From assembly GCA_964545815.1 (NCBI GenBank), contig CAZJGR010000003.1, forward strand, positions 1 to 57,745: a stretch of 57,745 bases of DNA, read 5' to 3'. Both the position numbers and the translations under genes were made by a program. The notes beneath the pieces are model-generated. The model saw only the letters and a program-made list of their open reading frames with translations. It was not told the origin of the DNA and ran no database searches. Every line of letters starts with the position of its first letter. The first letter of the stretch is position 1. Of the stretch, positions 37,795 through 54,128 are shown one piece after another. This DNA comes from an uncultured Dehalococcoidaceae bacterium (GTDB lineage: Bacteria; Chloroflexota; Dehalococcoidia; Dehalococcoidales; RBG-16-60-22).

Positions 37795-39069
37795 TCACTC
37801 TTCCAGCAGGGGGAGGATGAGGGGTCCTTCCGGAATGACGATGATTTCCGCATCATCTCCCAGAACGGAAAAAGCCCTCTCCATGCCTTCCTCAACGGTG
37901 CGGACCGGCGTTATCATCATATCGCGGACGGTGCCGTCATCCAGATTTGAGACCAGATAAATATCCTGTTTCAGCTGGGTGCGGGCCAGTATCTGGTTTT
38001 CCCACTGCACACCGATGGGCTCTTCCCGTTTTATCTTCCGGAGCACCTCTTTGGGAGAACCGACCGAGCGGTGCAGCTCCAGGAATGCCTCTGGCCCGAT
38101 GCCGGCGCGGCATGATGAGACCGTGATTATTATGCCACCATCGCGGGTGACCTGTGAGGCGGTGTCAATGCCCTTGCAGGTCTGGTACAGGTCCAGGTCA
38201 AGTGGTGCCCCGCTGTTGGTGGTTATGGTGATGTCTGCTCTCCGGGACACTTTAACGCCGGCGATTTCCTTCTCTATCTGGCAGCCTTTCTCATGGGCCC
38301 GGAAGGGGTGGCCGGCCACAACGTGGGTGATTTCATTTCGCTTATTGAGCAGCACATTGACGATGAAATTGAGCTTGGCCATCTGTGCCTGCTCTATCAT
38401 ATCTTCGTGGATAGGGTTGCCCTGCAGAATACCGGCCCGGACCTTTGGGTGCTCTATCATCTGGTAGCCATGGTTATGGTAGGCAGAGCGGACGCTGAAC
38501 ACCCCCGGAGCGATGCTTTTCCGTCCCCCGGAAAAGCCGGCAAAGAAATGTGGCTCGATAAAGCCGGTGCTGATGCGGAAATCGGCTTCAATGACGCGGC
38601 GGTTGATGTCTACCGGTGTTCCCCGTGAGGTGGTGCCAATGTAGACGGTATCGTTCACATCGTGGTTAACGACCTTATAGCTGGCCACGATGTCTTTGCC
38701 CAGTTTTCGGGAGAGCTCAGGCTCATTCAGCGGCGGGTGCAGGCCGAGGGCGACGATAATGGTGATGTTTTCCCGCGGCACTTTGCTTTCCAGCTCGGCG
38801 AGCAGCGGCGGCAGGATGCGGTCATCAGGGCAGGGCCTGGTATTATCGGTGGCCAGGACCACCACCTTAGCGTTGGGTTTAATCAGGTCGCGCAGCGGCG
38901 GTGAATCTATCGGCGAGCGCAGGCTCTGAATGATGGCTTCTCTTTCATCAACCAGACCCCTGGCGTCCTGCCTGGTGAGAATGCAGACAATGTTCTTGGC
39001 CGGTATCCGCGCCTTTAGCGAACATTCCCCGCAGGGTAATTCAATCTCGGTCAGTTCCATTCTTGGCAT
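37795..39069 (-). CDS. LarA family nickel-pincer-cofactor-dependent 2-hydroxyacid racemase/epimerase homolog
   Basis: 424 aa. ..VVLATDNTRPCP.. (compare LarA DxTRP), ..ALGLHPP.. (His of the ATGxH motif) and ..FIEPHFFAGFSGGRKSIAPG.. (LarA catalytic His and NPN-binding Lys region). Substrate not assignable. Confidence 0.85.
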   Translation of the reverse strand: MPRMELTEIELPCGECSLKARIPAKNIVCILTRQDARGLVDEREAIIQSLRSPIDSPPLRDLIKPNAKVVVLATDNTRPCPDDRILPPLLAELESKVPRENITIIVALGLHPPLNEPELSRKLGKDIVASYKVVNHDVNDTVYIGTTSRGTPVDINRRVIEADFRISTGFIEPHFFAGFSGGRKSIAPGVFSVRSAYHNHGYQMIEHPKVRAGILQGNPIHEDMIEQAQMAKLNFIVNVLLNKRNEITHVVAGHPFRAHEKGCQIEKEIAGVKVSRRADITITTNSGAPLDLDLYQTCKGIDTASQVTRDGGIIITVSSCRAGIGPEAFLELHRSVGSPKEVLRKIKREEPIGVQWENQILARTQLKQDIYLVSNLDDGTVRDMMITPVRTVEEGMERAFSVLGDDAEIIVIPEGPLILPLLEE

Positions 39070-39122
39070 TGTGCTCCCTTGCCCAGAGTGGGGAAGAGAC
39101 AGCGATTATTTCAGCAATTGAA

Positions 39123-39500
39123 TCAGGGTTTTTTACCGGCGGTTTTAACCAGAAGCTTGGCGGCGCGAGCCGGATTGAAGATGCCGCTCACCACCACCGA
39201 AAGCCCCAGGTCTGCCTCTTTGAGGTCTTTCAGCGCTCCGGTTACTGCCTGCGGGTTGTCAAATACGGCATGGGTATCGCCACGGGTGTCCGCGATGATT
39301 TCCTCAGGCCGGTACTCATACAGGCTGCCCTTGGTCTCACAGCCAATGTTCACCGGGTTATGACGCAGGCAGATACGTAAAAACTCCTGCAATTTCGGGA
39401 TGTAGTCCGTATCATTGACGCCGATGGCTTTAAGCATCAGGATAACGTAGTCCCCGCTCAGGCTCTCCGCCGTCCCACGACGGTGCAGCGTGTGTGTCAT
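39123..39500 (-). CDS. uncharacterized protein, short paralog (125 aa) of the adjacent 205-aa gene
   Basis: MTHTLHRRGTAESLSGDYV... By hand alignment, 62 of the first 107 residues are identical to the neighbouring ORF, and the C-terminal FNPARAAKLL is shared. No family recognised. Confidence 0.75.
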   Translation of the reverse strand: MTHTLHRRGTAESLSGDYVILMLKAIGVNDTDYIPKLQEFLRICLRHNPVNIGCETKGSLYEYRPEEIIADTRGDTHAVFDNPQAVTGALKDLKEADLGLSVVVSGIFNPARAAKLLVKTAGKKP

Positions 39501-39563
39501 CGGTTCGCTCCTTGAATGCAGACGGACTTCTCGAAACTATTTACTGGTTACGAGCGCCGGCGG

Positions 39564-40181
39564 CTATTTCTTGGCCATGGCCGCCAGCAACTTGGCCGCC
39601 CGAACCGGATTAAAGATGCCGCAGGCACACTGTGGTGTCAGGACTTTGGCTGCTTCATCCGGAGTCTTCCGCCCCGCTTTGATATCGTCTACCATGGACT
39701 TAATCAGGTTGGCGGAGATCATGGCGTGCCCGCACATCGTATGGACTTCGAGAATGTCATTACTGGGCAGTTTTTCGGTCTTGCCCCAGATGCCGAGCGA
39801 GAAATTGGCGGTGTGATGTTTCAGTCCGGCCTTCGCCAGGCATTCGTCAACCTTCTCGTAAATGCCACTTATCACCACGGACATCCCCAGCCCTGCCTTT
39901 TCCAGGTCTTTGAGCACGTCAACCACCTGGTCCTGCTTGACAAAGACGGCGTGGACGATGCCGTGAGCAGACTTAACCACCTCTTCCTTGGAGTGGCTGT
40001 ACATGTTGCCCGTGGAGATGGCACCGATGTTGACCGGGTCATGGCGCAGGGCGATGCGCAGGAACTCCGCCAATTTGGGTTCATGGTTCTTATCGTTGAA
40101 GCCAATGGCCGTCAGGCAGACCAGTACATAGTCTTGACTCAAGCTCTCCGCAGTACCACGTCGATGTAAACTATGTGTCAT
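39564..40181 (-). CDS. uncharacterized protein, long paralog (205 aa) with 82-aa Cys/His-containing insert
   Basis: MTHSLHRRGTAESLSQDYV... It has the same architecture as the 125-aa neighbour plus an insert at aa 108-189 (nt 39615-39860) containing HTMCGHAM and PQCACGI. No family recognised. Confidence 0.8.
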   Translation of the reverse strand: MTHSLHRRGTAESLSQDYVLVCLTAIGFNDKNHEPKLAEFLRIALRHDPVNIGAISTGNMYSHSKEEVVKSAHGIVHAVFVKQDQVVDVLKDLEKAGLGMSVVISGIYEKVDECLAKAGLKHHTANFSLGIWGKTEKLPSNDILEVHTMCGHAMISANLIKSMVDDIKAGRKTPDEAAKVLTPQCACGIFNPVRAAKLLAAMAKK

Positions 40182-40196
40182 TCATCTCCTCCTGAT

Positions 40197-40913
40197 TTAA
40201 ACATTGGCCAGAGGCCGGCCCAGGCCAACATTCTGTTTGCCGTTGATGTAATGGGGGATTCCCATCTCGTCGAGCAGCTTGAGCAGAGGGTAGGAGCCAT
40301 CGGGTTCAGCGCGGTTGATGACCTCAACGCTGAAGACAGTATCCACTTTCTTGGCTACCTCTTTCAGGGCAGTGATGATTTCCTTGAACTTCCCGATGGG
40401 GAACATGCACTCGATGATGGCGGAGAGCACCTTTTCCTTAAGCACCTCTTGCTTGAGCTTGCCGGTCTTTTTATCTTCCATCAGGAAGGTAACCGGGTTC
40501 TTGGGCTCAAACTCCGCGCCGTGCTTGGCCAGCACCTGGGACACCTTGTCCAGGTCATAGAAGCGGGTGCCGATGCCCGGTCGGCCAAACTCGCAGCCCA
40601 GGCCGACCCAGCCGCGCTTGAAGCGGCCGGTGACATCGTTGGTCTTCATCTCCTCCGTGCCGCGGCCGGCAATCCTCGTCTCCTTGTGCTCGGTCCTGGG
40701 GTCGGAGAAGGTGTTGCGCAGGGAGCGCGGCCAGGGTGCCGGCTCGAAGACGAAGGCGTCAACGGGGCAGACCTTTGACCTGAGGCAGACGGAGCAGTCC
40801 ACGCACTCCTCCTCATCGATGACGGCCACATCATTCTTCATGCTGATAACCCCCATCGGGCAGTAGGGCAGACAGGCCTCACAGGCGATGCACAGTTCCG
40901 GGTCAATTTTCAT
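40197..40913 (-). CDS. 4Fe-4S dicluster ferredoxin domain fused to a ~170-aa domain of unknown function
   Basis: The N-terminus has CIACEACLPYCP and CVDCSVCLRSKVCP. The remainder (..RTEHKETRIAGRGTEEMKTNDVTGRFKRGW...) matches no family I recognise. Confidence 0.8.
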   Translation of the reverse strand: MKIDPELCIACEACLPYCPMGVISMKNDVAVIDEEECVDCSVCLRSKVCPVDAFVFEPAPWPRSLRNTFSDPRTEHKETRIAGRGTEEMKTNDVTGRFKRGWVGLGCEFGRPGIGTRFYDLDKVSQVLAKHGAEFEPKNPVTFLMEDKKTGKLKQEVLKEKVLSAIIECMFPIGKFKEIITALKEVAKKVDTVFSVEVINRAEPDGSYPLLKLLDEMGIPHYINGKQNVGLGRPLANV

Positions 40914-40937: not shown

Positions 40938-42776
40938 TTATTTTGCCAGGTCTTCAATGCCCAGCTCTTTCAAGGTCTTGGGCAGTGGCATTCCGGTTTT
41001 TCTATCCCAGCCCATCAACTGGTAGTACTGGTCCATCATCTTTTCCCAGTGAGGGGCAATGGGCTTATCTTTGTTCGGGCCGTCCACAGACTGTGAGCAG
41101 TACCTTGGTGATGGCTTCTCCTTGCCCGGCGTCAGCCCGCACTTGAGGTTGTAGATGCGCAGCAGGTTGACGATGCGCCGGCCAATCTTCATTACCTCTT
41201 CCAGGCTGATGTTCCAGCCCGTAGCGGCATTGATGGCCTCGACCTGGGTCTCGGTATCGTTGAAGCTGGTGAACCAGCACTGGACAAGGCAGTCGCTGAT
41301 GGTCATTGAGCCAGTGGAGTTAACCTCGGCCTGGACGACATGGTCCGGGTTGAAAATGTCCATGGGATTGGGCATCTTCCACAGGGCTTTGTTCACCACC
41401 AGCATCTGGGTCTGAATCGTGCCGGTGTCGGAAATCGCGGTGTCAAGCATTTCCACCCAGCGTCCCCGGTGGTCATGGCCTCTCGGCGAATTGCCTTTGC
41501 CGGTGAAGATAGCCCATTTTACCGCCTCACCGCCCAGCTTCTCGGCGGCACTTTTCACGCCTTCGGCCAGGGTATTGCCGTAGCCGCGGCGCCTGGCTAT
41601 GTTTTCCAGCAGGGCGCGGGTTGCCTCAACGTTACCCCAGGTCATTTCCAGACCGTCGAGGTCTTTCTTCTTCAGCGCGCCTTTTTCGTAGCACTCCATT
41701 ACCCAGCCCACGACCCAGCTGGCCTCATTGCAGTCCATGCCAAGGCGGTCGCATACGTTGCTGAGCATGACAGCAGCGCCGGGGTCTTTCTGCCCAATTT
41801 GTGGTCCCCAGGCGGCCCACTGCTCATACTCCGGCTCCTTGCCGAAGAAATCTTTATACGGGCCCTCGGTGACGGTCATGAGCTCGTAGTGATGGGAAGC
41901 GCAGCCATAGCACGGGTAGGTCTGGCTCTGGAAGAGCGGGCGCACCCGCTGGCCATCAAAGAGGTCTTTTTCCGGGAAGACGTTGGTCAGGTAATTCTTG
42001 ACCGGCAGCCAGCCGGCAGCTTCCGCGCCCGGCACCACCCGGCTGGTCCCCCAGTTGAAAACGCCACCGCCACCAAAGCTTTTAGCACCTTCAGTGGTCT
42101 TCTTGGCCAGCTCGCCGATTTTCGGTGCGTCAACGAACTGAAGTTTGTTGGGGGCACGCTGGGCGGCAAATGCCTTGAGCTTTTTCGAGCCGAGCACAGC
42201 ACCGACGCCGTTGTGGGCGGCGGAATGCCCCCGGTCTCCGAATAGGCCGGCAAACCGCACCATCTTCTCACCCGCCGGGCCGATGCTGAAGACGCTCATT
42301 CCCCGTTCTTTATAGCCCAGTTCTGCCTTGATGGCGTCTTCTGTTTCCCAGGTATCCTTGCCCACTAATTTGCTGGCATCCCTGAGCTCGGCGCCACCTT
42401 CATGCAGGTAGAGGTATTTCCAGGTGGGGGAAGCGCCCTGAACGACGATGGCGTCATAGCCGCACCACTTCAGGTAGGCACCGAAATTCCCGTTGGCCTG
42501 TGTTGAAGTAGCGCCGTTGGTCATGGCACCTTTAGTGGTTATGGAGATGGTGGCGCAGCCGGGAATTCGGCTGCCCCCGAGAACGCCTGAGCCGAGGAAG
42601 AAAATGTTCTTCGGGTCAGACCAGTTAAGCTTGGGGTCCACCAGTTCCATCAGATACTTGGTGCCAAGCCCGGTACCACCGAGATATTTGCGGAGCGTGG
42701 CCTCGTCCAGAGCTTCGTCCCACAGTTTACCCTGAGTCAGGTTGACTCTCAGCACTTTGCCCGTAGAACCATACAT
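40938..42776 (-). CDS. aldehyde:ferredoxin oxidoreductase family (tungstopterin) enzyme
   Basis: 612 aa. MYGSTGKVLRVNLTQGKLWDE....RKYLGGTGLGTKYL is the AOR N-terminal domain, and AOR domains 2/3 follow throughout. Confidence 0.9.
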   Translation of the reverse strand: MYGSTGKVLRVNLTQGKLWDEALDEATLRKYLGGTGLGTKYLMELVDPKLNWSDPKNIFFLGSGVLGGSRIPGCATISITTKGAMTNGATSTQANGNFGAYLKWCGYDAIVVQGASPTWKYLYLHEGGAELRDASKLVGKDTWETEDAIKAELGYKERGMSVFSIGPAGEKMVRFAGLFGDRGHSAAHNGVGAVLGSKKLKAFAAQRAPNKLQFVDAPKIGELAKKTTEGAKSFGGGGVFNWGTSRVVPGAEAAGWLPVKNYLTNVFPEKDLFDGQRVRPLFQSQTYPCYGCASHHYELMTVTEGPYKDFFGKEPEYEQWAAWGPQIGQKDPGAAVMLSNVCDRLGMDCNEASWVVGWVMECYEKGALKKKDLDGLEMTWGNVEATRALLENIARRRGYGNTLAEGVKSAAEKLGGEAVKWAIFTGKGNSPRGHDHRGRWVEMLDTAISDTGTIQTQMLVVNKALWKMPNPMDIFNPDHVVQAEVNSTGSMTISDCLVQCWFTSFNDTETQVEAINAATGWNISLEEVMKIGRRIVNLLRIYNLKCGLTPGKEKPSPRYCSQSVDGPNKDKPIAPHWEKMMDQYYQLMGWDRKTGMPLPKTLKELGIEDLAK

Positions 42777-42793: not shown

Positions 42794-43138
42794 TCATCCC
42801 CCATAAAAGCCTGGGGTTAGTTTTACATTGTCTCCTTCTTTAAGCTCAGTATTGAGGGCATGAAGCGAAGATAAAAAGGTGCCGTTATAAATCACGGCAC
42901 AGTAGTCAAGCAAATTTTGTTTGGCATCGATAAAGGCTTTCTGCCTGAACTTGGGATATTTCCTGGCCAGCTGTTGCAGCAAATCCATTATTGACGAACC
43001 CCGGGCAACTTCCTGGTCGAAAATCAGCTTGTCCCAGCCTTCATGGCCGAAGTCCTCCTTAAGCCAGGCCATAACCTCAATGCTGACCTTTATTTTTGTC
43101 CTTGCTTTAACCCCGGTTCCAGACACACCCGCTTCCAT
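42794..43138 (-). CDS. MoaD/ThiS-like ubiquitin-fold protein with C-terminal Gly-Gly
   Basis: 114 aa ending ..LKEGDNVKLTPGFYGG. Located immediately upstream of the AOR gene. Confidence 0.7.
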   Translation of the reverse strand: MEAGVSGTGVKARTKIKVSIEVMAWLKEDFGHEGWDKLIFDQEVARGSSIMDLLQQLARKYPKFRQKAFIDAKQNLLDYCAVIYNGTFLSSLHALNTELKEGDNVKLTPGFYGG

Positions 43139-43187: not shown

Positions 43188-43955
43188 TTATGATTGTCCC
43201 CGTGCCATCTGTAGATATTCGCGCCCTGACTTCACCAGCATCGTTACGGCATTGTAAGTGATGAACTTGAAGCCCTGTTCCTGGCGCAGTTTCAGCGTTT
43301 CCGCATCATAGGCGATAGTGCCGGTCGCCCTGCCGGCAGCGTGAATCTCCTTGACGAGTTTGGCAATCATTTTATGCACTTCAGGGTGGTTCTGCTGACC
43401 GGTGTAACCCATGGCTGCGGACAGGTCGTTCGGGCCGATGAAGACAATGTCGACGCCGGGAACGGTCAGTATCTCTTTGAGGTTTTCCACCGCCTCCATG
43501 GTCTCTATCTGCACGATGACCAGGTTCTGGCGGTTTGCTTCCTCTACGTACTTGGCTGTCGGCCCCCACATTCCCCAGTTGTTAGCCCTGACCCCGGCCA
43601 GACCTCTCCGGCCCACCGGCCGGTACCTGACCGAACGCACCACATTTTCCACGTCCGCCTTGGTATTGAGCAGCGGCAGCTGAACGCCCAGTGCCCCCAT
43701 GTCAAGGTAGCGCAGAATGTTCTGCTGGATGTTCATGGCAATGCGAACCAGTGGTGTGATATTGACCACATCGGCGGCCCGTATCATCTGCTCACAGGTC
43801 TCCAGACCCATGGGGCCATGCTCGGCATCTATTAGGGCGAAATCAAAGCCAAGATGACCGATGACTTCGACAATGGCGGGGGAGGGGATATTGATGAAGA
43901 CACCGTAGGCGGTTTCGCCGGCCAGGATTTTCTCCTTGGTCAGGTTCTTTCTCAT
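43188..43955 (-). CDS. HpcH/HpaI family 2-keto-3-deoxy-acid aldolase
   Basis: 255 aa. ..GVFINIPSPAIVEVIGHLGFDFALIDAEHGP.......R......TPLVR......I.R.LD.GA.GV..P is the class II pyruvate aldolase pattern. Confidence 0.88.
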   Translation of the reverse strand: MRKNLTKEKILAGETAYGVFINIPSPAIVEVIGHLGFDFALIDAEHGPMGLETCEQMIRAADVVNITPLVRIAMNIQQNILRYLDMGALGVQLPLLNTKADVENVVRSVRYRPVGRRGLAGVRANNWGMWGPTAKYVEEANRQNLVIVQIETMEAVENLKEILTVPGVDIVFIGPNDLSAAMGYTGQQNHPEVHKMIAKLVKEIHAAGRATGTIAYDAETLKLRQEQGFKFITYNAVTMLVKSGREYLQMARGQS

Positions 43956-52259: not shown

Positions 52260-54128
52260 CTAGCTCCCTTTGCTGGCATCCTCCACGGCGAAGTCCAGCC
52301 CCAGTTCGAGCAGCTTTTTCTTGGTCGGGTTGCCGGTCTTCAGGTCCCAGCCCCGATAGGCGTAGTAATCGTCCTTCAATCGCTCAAGGGTCTCCTTGGG
52401 GATGTAGCTTCCCTTCATCGGTCCTTCCGGTATCGGCTCTTCCATGAAGCGGGCGGGCAGCTGGTCATCTCTGCGGGTGAACCCCTCTCTGGCGGTAAAG
52501 CAGCGGATCATGTTCCACTCCCTTTCCGCAATCTTCCTGGCCCCTGTGTAGTCAAGCTCCCATCCCGTAACCGCATTCAGGGCATTTATCATGCTAGCGC
52601 TGATTTTAAGCGGTCCCCAGATTGGCTCGGCCAGGTGGCATACCAGCATGGAGTCGCCAAGTATCAGCCAGTGATTGACTTCCGCTGCCAGCGCCCCTTT
52701 CCCCTCAAGTGTCCTGCGGTCGACCAGTCCGCTCCTCTCGGCAGTGGGTCGGATGTCATGGTGGCTGCCGCCTCTTGGCCCGGTGGCATAGCCGACGGCG
52801 GCGGCAGGGAAGGGACGACAGGTATGGCCCGGCCACTCCAGCCCCTTGTTCTGGATGGCAAAGCGGCTGGTATCCTTGCCCACGATTTTCGATGCTTCCC
52901 TTGTTCCCTTGGCCAGCAGCGCTCCCAGCCCTTCCCTTTTGCCGATTTTTTCAATCATCTGGAGCATGCCATCGGCATTTCCGAACCGTAAGTCAATGCC
53001 ACCGGTGTCTTTTTTGTTGAAAATCCCTTTCTCGTAGCACTCCATAGCCCAGCCAATGCTCACTCCGGTCGAGATGAGGTCGATTCCATAATGGTCGCAG
53101 AGCTCGTCTGCCTTGCAGAGCACCTCGATGTTGTCCACCTCACAGATGCTGCCAAAGGCGTAAATCGTCTCATAGTCAGCACCGTTGATGATTGATTTAT
53201 ACGGACCCTTTGGCACCACGCTGTACTTGGTGCAGTTAATGGAACAGGCGAAACAGGCGCGGTCGCCCTTGACCACCTGCTTCCTCATCGCCTCGCCGGT
53301 GATATTTTTCATCCCCTTAAAAGTCTCGGTCTGCCAGTTTCTGGTAGGCAGGGTGCCGCCTTCATTCATGGCGGCCACATTGCGTGGTGTGCCGTACCCG
53401 GAGAGGCCCTGTACCGCCGGGGTGGTGGCAAAGAGCTCATTGATTCTGACGGCAGTGTTGTAGACCCTGAGCATATTGGGCACGGTAATGCCTCCGGTGC
53501 CTCTGACGGCGATGGCCTTGAGGTTTTTCGAGCCCATCACCGACCCCAGCCCGCCGCGGCCGGCCGCCCGGATGTCGCAGAGAATCATGGCGTAGGGTGC
53601 CTTCTCCTCACCGGCCAGCCCGATGGTGGCGATGTGAATTTCCTCATCGCCAATCTCACTGCGCAGGATTTCCTCGGCCGTGAACGGGTCTTTACCCCAG
53701 AGGTGGCGGGCATCTCTGATTTCAACCCGGTCATCGTCAATCCAGATATAGGAGGGCTTGTCTGCCCGGCCTTCAATTATCAGGCCATCGTAGCCGGCGA
53801 ACTTGAGCTCAGGCCCCAGAAAGCCGCCGAAGATGCTGTGGTAAAACGATTTGGTGTACGGTGACTTGGCGCAGAAAGAGGAGCGTGAAGCCGCCGGAAT
53901 CATCGTGCCATTAACCGGGCCGGTCATCATGACCAGCTTATTCTCCGGCCCCAGAGGGTCGATTTTGGGCGGGAGCTCTTCGTAGAGGATTCTGGCCGAT
54001 AGTCCGACGCCACCAACGAAATCCCTGGCCCAGTCTTCACTGAGGTCTTCCTTGGCAATGCGTTTCTTACTGAGATTGACCCTGAGTAGCTGTCCGATAT
54101 ATCCGCCGTAGGGAAAGCCTTTCGCCAT
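52260..54128 (-). CDS. aldehyde:ferredoxin oxidoreductase family (tungstopterin) enzyme, second copy
   Basis: 622 aa. ..GYIGQLLRVNLSKKRIAKEDLSEDWARDFVGGVGLSARILYEE.. and AOR domains throughout. Paralogous to 40938-42776. Confidence 0.9.
   Translation of the reverse strand: MAKGFPYGGYIGQLLRVNLSKKRIAKEDLSEDWARDFVGGVGLSARILYEELPPKIDPLGPENKLVMMTGPVNGTMIPAASRSSFCAKSPYTKSFYHSIFGGFLGPELKFAGYDGLIIEGRADKPSYIWIDDDRVEIRDARHLWGKDPFTAEEILRSEIGDEEIHIATIGLAGEEKAPYAMILCDIRAAGRGGLGSVMGSKNLKAIAVRGTGGITVPNMLRVYNTAVRINELFATTPAVQGLSGYGTPRNVAAMNEGGTLPTRNWQTETFKGMKNITGEAMRKQVVKGDRACFACSINCTKYSVVPKGPYKSIINGADYETIYAFGSICEVDNIEVLCKADELCDHYGIDLISTGVSIGWAMECYEKGIFNKKDTGGIDLRFGNADGMLQMIEKIGKREGLGALLAKGTREASKIVGKDTSRFAIQNKGLEWPGHTCRPFPAAAVGYATGPRGGSHHDIRPTAERSGLVDRRTLEGKGALAAEVNHWLILGDSMLVCHLAEPIWGPLKISASMINALNAVTGWELDYTGARKIAEREWNMIRCFTAREGFTRRDDQLPARFMEEPIPEGPMKGSYIPKETLERLKDDYYAYRGWDLKTGNPTKKKLLELGLDFAVEDASKGS

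Follow-up and report, generated by a model that had tools for sequence, protein, structure and literature searches.

In AorABC-type aldehyde:ferredoxin oxidoreductase (AOR) complexes and in the CooS-CooF-FNOR modules of carbon monoxide dehydrogenase (CODH), whose genomic contexts have been described (PMC6344411), a dicluster ferredoxin or polyferredoxin gene adjoins, and is sometimes fused with, the gene of its catalytic partner. We analysed a 57,745-nt stretch of DNA (hereafter the window) from an uncultured Dehalococcoidaceae bacterium (GenBank assembly GCA_964545815.1, contig CAZJGR010000003.1), in which a comparable arrangement lies on the minus strand: the gene of a ferredoxin-fusion protein, which we call Y, is followed by an intact gene of an unannotated family, X, and then by a shorter paralogue, X' (Table 1). 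Y-X pairs share operons with AOR, CooF-like, Prismane/CODH-like and flavin adenine dinucleotide (FAD) oxidoreductase genes, and in outline they resemble the oxidoreductases of anaerobes that are built from an iron-sulphur (Fe-S) subunit and a catalytic subunit; to AOR, CODH, HCP and the other catalytic subunits in Pfam and the PDB, however, X is unrelated in sequence and in fold, and the C-terminal domain of Y is likewise unmatched. The general kind of system, a ferredoxin subunit with a catalytic subunit, is thus a known one, and the two families that make up Y-X are uncharacterised; our searches of the literature on the genomic context of the LarA superfamily, AOR and Ni-CODH brought up no mention of the pair. 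Only the N-terminal domain of Y belongs to a known family, as X fails the Pfam, NCBIfam, PDB sequence and fold, HAD, V4R and CDGSH tests reported below. Taken as a whole, the locus is likely to be best explained by the combination of a deletion in X', a functional unit made of Y and X, and a redox mechanism for that unit.

X represents an unannotated family of anaerobes, with ~800 clusters at 50% identity in at least five phyla. Searches of a word-indexed database returned 807 matches to the long protein and 1,235 to the short one; there were 803 X representatives at 50% identity (E <= 1e-3), nearly all of 200-230 aa and covering the whole profile. A collection with one genome per species gave 277 tblastn-confirmed matches, and the 76 loci that we retrieved from the genome collection, by a search with a closer X alignment, came from Dehalococcoidia/Chloroflexota, Syntrophales and other Deltaproteobacteria/Thermodesulfobacteriota, Firmicutes, Acidobacteriota and Synergistota. 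The initial annotation of the window could not place either protein in a family, and our searches agree with it: neither X nor X' reached the curated gathering cutoff of any family in Pfam or NCBIfam, neither single-sequence nor profile searches of PDB sequences gave a significant match to X (best E = 0.11 with a profile), and in RefSeq the members of Halanaerobium sp. MA284_MarDTE_T2 (WP_114457817.1) and Schnuerera sp. xch1 (WP_223376327.1) go by the name 'hypothetical protein'. When we scanned 38 diverse members at E <= 1, HAD_2 (PF13419) alone came up, as a weak, sub-threshold and partial match in 9/38 that is local to one beta-alpha-beta stretch (residues ~71-124). We rejected X as a HAD-like hydrolase on its score (15.3 bits vs. 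23.8, over profile positions 68-122 of 178 only) and on the N-terminus MTHSLHRRG, which has no catalytic DxD motif. The V4R/COG1719 'predicted hydrocarbon binding protein', a JGI name carried by one member (P0158; L and P numbers denote loci and proteins of our survey), was rejected as well, there being no V4R match among the 38 members at the same threshold.

An alignment of diverse members left 11 residues invariant across the family (H6, R7, G99, G130, G133, C150, G151, H152, C185, C187 and N191). Three Cys and one His dominate this set, all four of them inside the segment that X' has lost, and the Cys/His residues to which the initial annotation had drawn attention turned out to be the family's most conserved feature. 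They are spaced as C-G-H, then 32 residues, then C-x-C. The N-terminus of X is almost invariant from Met1 onwards (M-T-H/N-x-L-H-R-x-G, residues 1-9, window 40155-40181, minus strand), an unusual feature which suggests, from conservation, that the protein's own N-terminus may take part in an active or metal site. The confident AlphaFold2 (AF2) model of X (predicted local distance difference test, pLDDT, 86.7; predicted template modelling score, pTM, 0.83) consists of an alpha/beta domain (residues 1-107) and a helical subdomain (108-204), and Foldseek found for it in the PDB nothing beyond a generic ferredoxin-like alpha/beta likeness (best E = 0.13, TM ~0.27). Mean-field direct coupling analysis (394 sequences, Meff 170) gave the Cys/His segment pair a z of only ~2.4, in a signal dominated by indel-prone columns.

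The initial annotation had taken the second paralogue to be the partner of X; the conserved partner is instead Y. In its first 58 residues Y carries a 2x[4Fe-4S] ferredoxin domain (PF00037, 33.4 bits, cutoff 21.1; PF12838, 32.7 bits, cutoff 27), whose eight cysteines (C8, C11, C14, C18, C37, C40, C43 and C49) have the classical spacing and are invariant in 21 sequences. Matches to Y in the PDB were confined to residues 2-69 (best E = 1.6e-21, for the ferredoxin domain), and the remaining C-terminal domain of ~175 aa had no PDB match in sequence or fold. Adjacency was counted over 95 X genes, from genomes and metagenomes, with enough DNA upstream. Y lies directly upstream of 80 of them on the same strand, at a median distance of 18 nt, across Dehalococcoidia, Deltaproteobacteria/Syntrophales, Firmicutes, Acidobacteriota and Synergistota; a further 10/95 follow another X, as X' does in the window.

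The two proteins also occur as natural fusions (P0366, 476 aa; P0367, 471 aa). Residues 1-181 of P0367 match X (E = 1e-43) and residues 208-465 match Y (E = 5e-59), and since this X-then-Y order is the reverse of the Y-then-X gene order, and the fusion is a single open reading frame (ORF) on its contig, a missed stop codon or read-through artefact does not account for it. In P0229 and P0241 (also L111:937-2172) a CooF-type (Fer4_11) polyferredoxin continues the chain from the C-terminus of X, and the 246-aa Fer4 protein encoded before P0229 is presumably Y. An AF2 model of the X-Y fusion (pTM 0.72) has confident X and Y C-terminal domains, and its best Foldseek match in the PDB had E = 0.08. 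The conserved SLGxWGxTxxLP loop, which has pLDDT <50 when X is modelled alone (residues 125-132, window ~39786-39809, minus strand), is ordered in the equivalent region of the fusion model (pLDDT ~87-91, strands), a weak hint from modelling that this loop might pack against Y. We looked at, and rejected, homology between the N-terminal domain of X and the C-terminal domain of Y, which share an 'RG-T-E' motif and would make a pseudo-symmetric heterodimer (hhalign probability 2.4%). From adjacency and fusion we consider it highly likely that Y-X is a conserved partnership, and that the true unit is Y with X rather than the long form with the short one.

What, then, is X'? Both X and X' are minus-strand ORFs and, as the initial annotation had recognised, true paralogues: BLASTP aligned their residues 1-108 with 62/108 identities (E = 2e-44), far beyond chance, both end in FNP[VA]RAAKLL and a Lys-rich tail, and the extra block of the long copy, of 82 residues, contains HTMCGHAM and PQCACGI. 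The block had been read as an insertion in the long copy, which has the direction wrong, as orthologues reveal a 246-nt in-frame deletion in the short one. The 125-aa protein formed a cluster of one in the database search, its sole occurrence being this contig, and an exact-sequence look-up of the product found no other record. Its nearest relatives have 205-210 aa, the closest (P0122 and P0123) being 94-97% identical at the protein level over residues 1-108, and against these and five others (P0125, P0127, P0128, P0129 and P0137) X' lacks 82 residues between ...VVSGI and FNPAR.... Full-length X' orthologues occupy the same position directly upstream of a LarA homologue (L001-L006, L115), all other genomes examined carry an intact X' (L001-L006, L010, L015, L016, L031, L114 and L115), and the L114 protein reads through the junction position as ...VVSGIFATVD. 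Among 99 family genes in 75 loci, all 96 that are not cut by a contig end encode at least 203 aa.

At the DNA level, X' and its L001 counterpart agree at 313/321 positions as far as ...GTGAGCGGCATCTT (edge GCGGCATCTT); past the breakpoint it continues with the L001 sequence 246 nt further on, GCGGTATCTTCAATCC (...TGCGGTATCTTCAATCC...). The breakpoint falls within a ~10-nt direct repeat, GCGG(C/T)ATCTT, which arises from the two occurrences of the peptide motif (S/C)GIF in the protein. Slippage or recombination between the two repeats is the probable cause of the in-frame loss of 246 nt from X', and the loss would have taken with it the helical subdomain that holds the invariant C150-G-H152 and C185-x-C187. 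On this comparison of sequences, X' is very probably a deletion derivative of an ancestral full-length gene. Gone are 7/11 of the family-invariant residues (G130, G133, C150, G151, H152, C185 and C187), whereas H6, R7, G99 and the Asn of FNP are kept, and we therefore set aside X' as a complete member of the family and regard it as a truncated derivative. Because the subdomain with the invariant Cys and His residues has been removed, the product is most likely non-functional; the lesion would be very recent. The retained part differs from its orthologue by five synonymous and three non-synonymous changes (omega ~0.18; the genes of LarA and the TIM barrel, its neighbours, give 0.14 and 0.12), and this absence of decay means either that the lesion is recent or, less likely, that the N-terminal domain is still used. 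As a natural deletion allele, X' points to the lost subdomain as a target for mutagenesis.

The initial annotation had proposed that a Cys/His module was inserted into a short ancestor, leaving long and short forms as a conserved heteromeric pair. X and X' are indeed adjacent, co-directional and alike at both termini, but we regard this as very improbable, as the 125-aa form is a singleton while the ~800 family clusters and all 96 complete genes are full length, the orthologues of X' are full length with the junction at a direct repeat, and paralogue pairs are not universal (one to three copies per locus, with a single X in some genomes and three in others). The 82-residue difference would then be an ordinary strain-specific deletion that is not worth pursuing as a long/short heteromer. 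It could also be asked whether the deletion is an artefact of assembly or consensus, or a minority allele, in an organism that has a full-length X'. Three separate deletions lie within ~700 nt relative to close relatives: besides the 246 nt, 41 nt are missing from the X-X' spacer (39501-39563; L114:3334-3375 and L115 ~1060-1105 in relatives), and the spacer between X' and LarA (39070-39122) has 36 nt fewer than its counterpart in the closest relative (L001:661-749). The 41-nt segment forms, in the relatives, a perfect 13-bp terminator-like hairpin followed by a T-run, GTACTACCCATT-gtat-AATGGGTAGTAC TTTATT (free energy -23.9 kcal/mol, z = -2.8). Contigs of two samples (L112/L001 and L113/L003) end exactly at this palindrome, which also accounts for the breaks between X and X' in several assemblies of related strains. 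No independent assembly of the deletion allele was found, the contig with an identical Y ending inside X, and a codon-degenerate search of a metagenome collection for the junction VVSGIFNPA gave 23 chance matches, none of which encoded a member of the X family. Against an artefact, de Bruijn assembly at the usual k would not be expected to mis-join at a repeat of only ~10 nt, the deletion keeps the frame exactly, so that a clean ORF and its ribosome-binding site (RBS) remain, and its flanks are collinear at 95-97% identity; we consider an artefact or minority allele improbable. We hold it just as improbable that the truncated X' has acquired a new function, as an N-domain-only competitor of X for Y, a regulator or a decoy. 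Its reading frame, its RBS (AAGGAG, 7 nt before the ATG) and its C-terminal helix are kept, the omega of the retained part is low, and the deletion edges coincide with secondary-structure edges in the AF2 model (one where strand 101-105 ends, the other where helix 192-204 begins); but the short form is conserved nowhere else, most of the invariant residues are gone, and a low omega is equally expected of a very recent deletion.

Returning to Y and X as the unit, the neighbourhoods in which the pair occurs share a common theme of ferredoxin-level redox chemistry and small organic-acid metabolism. Dehalococcoidia have a conserved order of HpcH aldolase, ThiS/MoaD-like protein, AOR, Y and X, sometimes with one or two further X or Y-X, and then LarA, a xylose-isomerase-like TIM barrel, GlcD-like FAD oxidases, a CCG/Fer4 protein and glycerate kinase. 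The initial annotation had raised co-localisation of the paralogues with AOR, LarA and the ferredoxin-fusion gene, and of these the linkage to the ferredoxin-fusion gene is broad, whereas linkage to LarA is confined to Dehalococcoidia and, outside them, AOR is found only in three loci (L061, L063 and L079), a few kb away. Firmicutes, Acidobacteriota and Deltaproteobacteria share a conserved five-gene set in which Y and X accompany a CooF-like polyferredoxin, a Prismane/CODH-family protein and a Pyr_redox_2 FAD oxidoreductase (L070, L073-L077, L079, L082 and L084); its Prismane/CODH-family protein is divergent (~440-520 aa), the profile match being limited to the first ~100 residues. The Y-X genes of Deltaproteobacteria and Thermodesulfobacteriota are flanked on one side by a thiamine diphosphate (ThDP) enzyme of the acetolactate-synthase/oxalyl-CoA-decarboxylase type and on the other by one or two family-III CoA-transferases (L060, L062-L065; also L085), a setting that by analogy may be oxalate/glyoxylate-like or 2-hydroxyacyl-CoA-lyase-like. 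Elsewhere, tandem Y-X pairs stand directly downstream of TRAP transporter genes (DctP/DctM), three of them in L053 and L055, where a PdxA-like dehydrogenase follows just beyond on the opposite strand, and two with an unpaired X in L056; these tandem pairs look like substrate-diversified paralogues. Two further loci (L071 and L081) place Y-X beside TctABC or GntP carboxylate transporters and Ldh_2, Fe-ADH and PdxA-like genes.

We reasoned from these contexts how the pair might work. The two cubane clusters of Y would form an electron path that connects a metal or Fe-S site in X with another enzyme, acting as donor or acceptor; the site would be ligated by three Cys and one His (the candidates being C150, H152, C185 and C187). 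In the window the enzyme exchanging electrons would be the tungsten/molybdenum AOR encoded directly upstream, and in other phyla the CooF/Prismane-CODH-like/FAD-oxidoreductase set, or the ThDP enzyme with its CoA-transferases; the site in X would reduce, oxidise or reductively dehydroxylate a small substrate related to organic acids. That Y-X is a two-subunit Fe-S redox enzyme with a putative Cys3His metal site in X is, judged from the sequences, about an even proposition. The redox or catalytic role that the initial annotation had tied to the ferredoxin-fusion gene is plausible in view of the Y-X adjacency and the fusions. More specifically, and only tentatively, Y-X may be an undescribed Fe-S enzyme of new fold, two-subunit and sometimes single-chain, in which a catalytic Cys3His cluster, with AOR, CODH-like or ThDP-dependent enzymes as the source of electrons at the ferredoxin level, would reduce a C2-C4 hydroxy or oxo acid or dehydroxylate it reductively; if true, this would supply a missing reaction in the anaerobic catabolism of glycolate, glyoxylate and sugar acids in Dehalococcoidia and at least four other phyla.

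Several described systems resemble parts of this scheme. IspG, IspH and 4-hydroxybutyryl-CoA dehydratase combine ligation by three Cys (with or without His) with a ferredoxin-type electron wire and a hydroxy-acid context, and the three-Cys signature of X is, by analogy, compatible with a substrate-binding [4Fe-4S] cluster as in ferredoxin-fed reductive dehydroxylases; unlike in those enzymes, the cluster of X is only putative, its motif spacing differs, and there is no detectable homology. The 3Cys-1His [2Fe-2S] proteins of the CDGSH/mitoNEET type have the ligand motifs C-x-C and C-(D)G-(S)-H that X also has, but in the opposite order and ~8 residues apart rather than 32, and the predicted fold of X is helical; CDGSH membership was rejected, with a zf-CDGSH Pfam match in 0/38 diverse members. 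HgcA/HgcB and the 'HgcAB-like fusion' (NF040864, NF043039) likewise have a dedicated 2x[4Fe-4S] ferredoxin beside a partner, fused with it in some genomes, but that partner is a corrinoid membrane protein, unlike X; as a member of either NCBIfam family Y was rejected, since it matches only through the generic ferredoxin domain (30.9 bits vs. 99 and 22.5 vs. 285, far below the cutoffs).

Instead of catalysing a redox reaction, X with Y might mature or chaperone metallocentres for W/Mo-AOR, the Ni-pincer LarA and Prismane/CODH-like proteins. The neighbours are often complex metalloenzymes, and the extremely conserved N-terminus, with H6 and R7 invariant, beside a Cys3His site resembles the Ni chaperone HypA, which has an N-terminal metal hook and a Zn site. 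Fusion to electron-transfer domains (Fer4 of Y, CooF-like Fer4_11) would be unusual for chaperones, however, and where Y-X stands three times in tandem behind TRAP transporters, the copies have the look of enzymes diversified by substrate; it is this multiplication, together with the fusions, that makes us favour an enzyme. Many Y-X loci, e.g. L071 and L081, also have no metalloenzyme within 8 kb, and a maturation role is in our view unlikely. Rather unlikely, too, is a non-redox role in which X is a three-Cys Fe-S hydro-lyase for a sugar- or hydroxy-acid dehydratase step that the aldolase/AOR/LarA cluster lacks, and Y only protects or reactivates its cluster. X has exactly three invariant Cys, and three-Cys [4Fe-4S] clusters are used by aconitase, Fe-S serine dehydratase and class I fumarase; the Dehalococcoidia cluster includes an HpcH aldolase (acting on 2-keto-3-deoxy acids) and no recognisable dehydratase, and other loci encode hydroxy-acid enzymes (Ldh_2, PdxA-like and Fe-ADH). 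Yet X is similar in neither sequence nor fold to any known Fe-S dehydratase, and its obligatory dicluster ferredoxin partner and polyferredoxin fusions argue for net electron transfer.

The combined explanation, of a deletion in X' and a redox unit of Y and X, has observations weighing against it: the neighbourhoods of Y-X differ between phyla, five of the 95 X genes have neither Y nor X upstream (L036, L044, L046, L049 and L052), and the retained part of X', without decay and with its RBS and frame kept, may have a residual function. Three of these orphan X genes (L036, L044 and L046) lie near anthranilate synthase genes. Even so qualified, X is a widespread and unannotated family without a structural relative, marked by an invariant Cys3His signature and genetically locked to an equally unannotated Y. 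The operons that contain the pair, whether in uncultured Dehalococcoidia, in syntrophs or in fermenters, concern aldehyde oxidation, CODH-like enzymes and the uptake of organic acids. A gap that recurs when the metabolism of subsurface anaerobes is reconstructed would be closed by knowing what chemistry the pair performs.

Table 1. Features of the Y-X locus and its co-directional neighbours (positions refer to the window).
Feature	Position	Strand	Basis or remarks
LarA homologue (nickel-pincer 2-hydroxyacid racemase/epimerase family)	37795..39069	-	Pfam Lar_N, LarA_C; directly downstream of X'
X' (125-aa truncated paralogue)	39123..39500	-	ORF; N-terminal alpha/beta domain (residues 1-107) and C-terminal helix kept, residues 108-189 gone
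Deletion junction GCGGCATCTT	39178..39187	-	remaining copy of the ~10-nt direct repeat coding (S/C)GIF; DNA alignment with L001-L003, per-base left/right match
X (intact, 205 aa, unannotated family)	39564..40181	-	ORF, family alignment, AF2 model
X residues 108-189, helical subdomain lost from X'	39615..39860	-	HHTxxFSLGxWGxTxxLP loop, TMCGH, CxCG
Y (238 aa, conserved partner of X)	40197..40913	-	2x[4Fe-4S] ferredoxin N-terminus and ~175-aa C-terminal domain; Pfam Fer4
AOR (aldehyde:ferredoxin oxidoreductase)	40938..42776	-	Pfam AFOR_N, AFOR_C; directly upstream of Y in Dehalococcoidia loci
ThiS/MoaD-like small protein	42794..43138	-	Pfam ThiS; upstream of AOR, conserved
HpcH/HpaI-type aldolase, first gene of the co-directional unit	43188..43955	-	synteny with loci whose called gene matches PF03328

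Upstream of the HpcH gene there is a promoter-like site at 44026-43997, and no convincing internal terminator was found within the co-directional unit of the window. The LarA homologue scores 446.6 bits against Ni_dep_LarA of NCBIfam (lactate racemase; cutoff 460) and 410.9 bits against the NCBIfam malate racemase (cutoff 500). A second AOR-family paralogue, with 29% identity to the AOR of the cluster and no adjoining Y or X, is encoded at 52260-54128 (minus strand). On an unrelated contig, a ThiS/MoaD-like gene (L110:1622-1894, minus strand) adjoins a natural X-Y fusion gene. The ThiS/MoaD-like protein, encoded in the window upstream of AOR, may be more than an AOR accessory.

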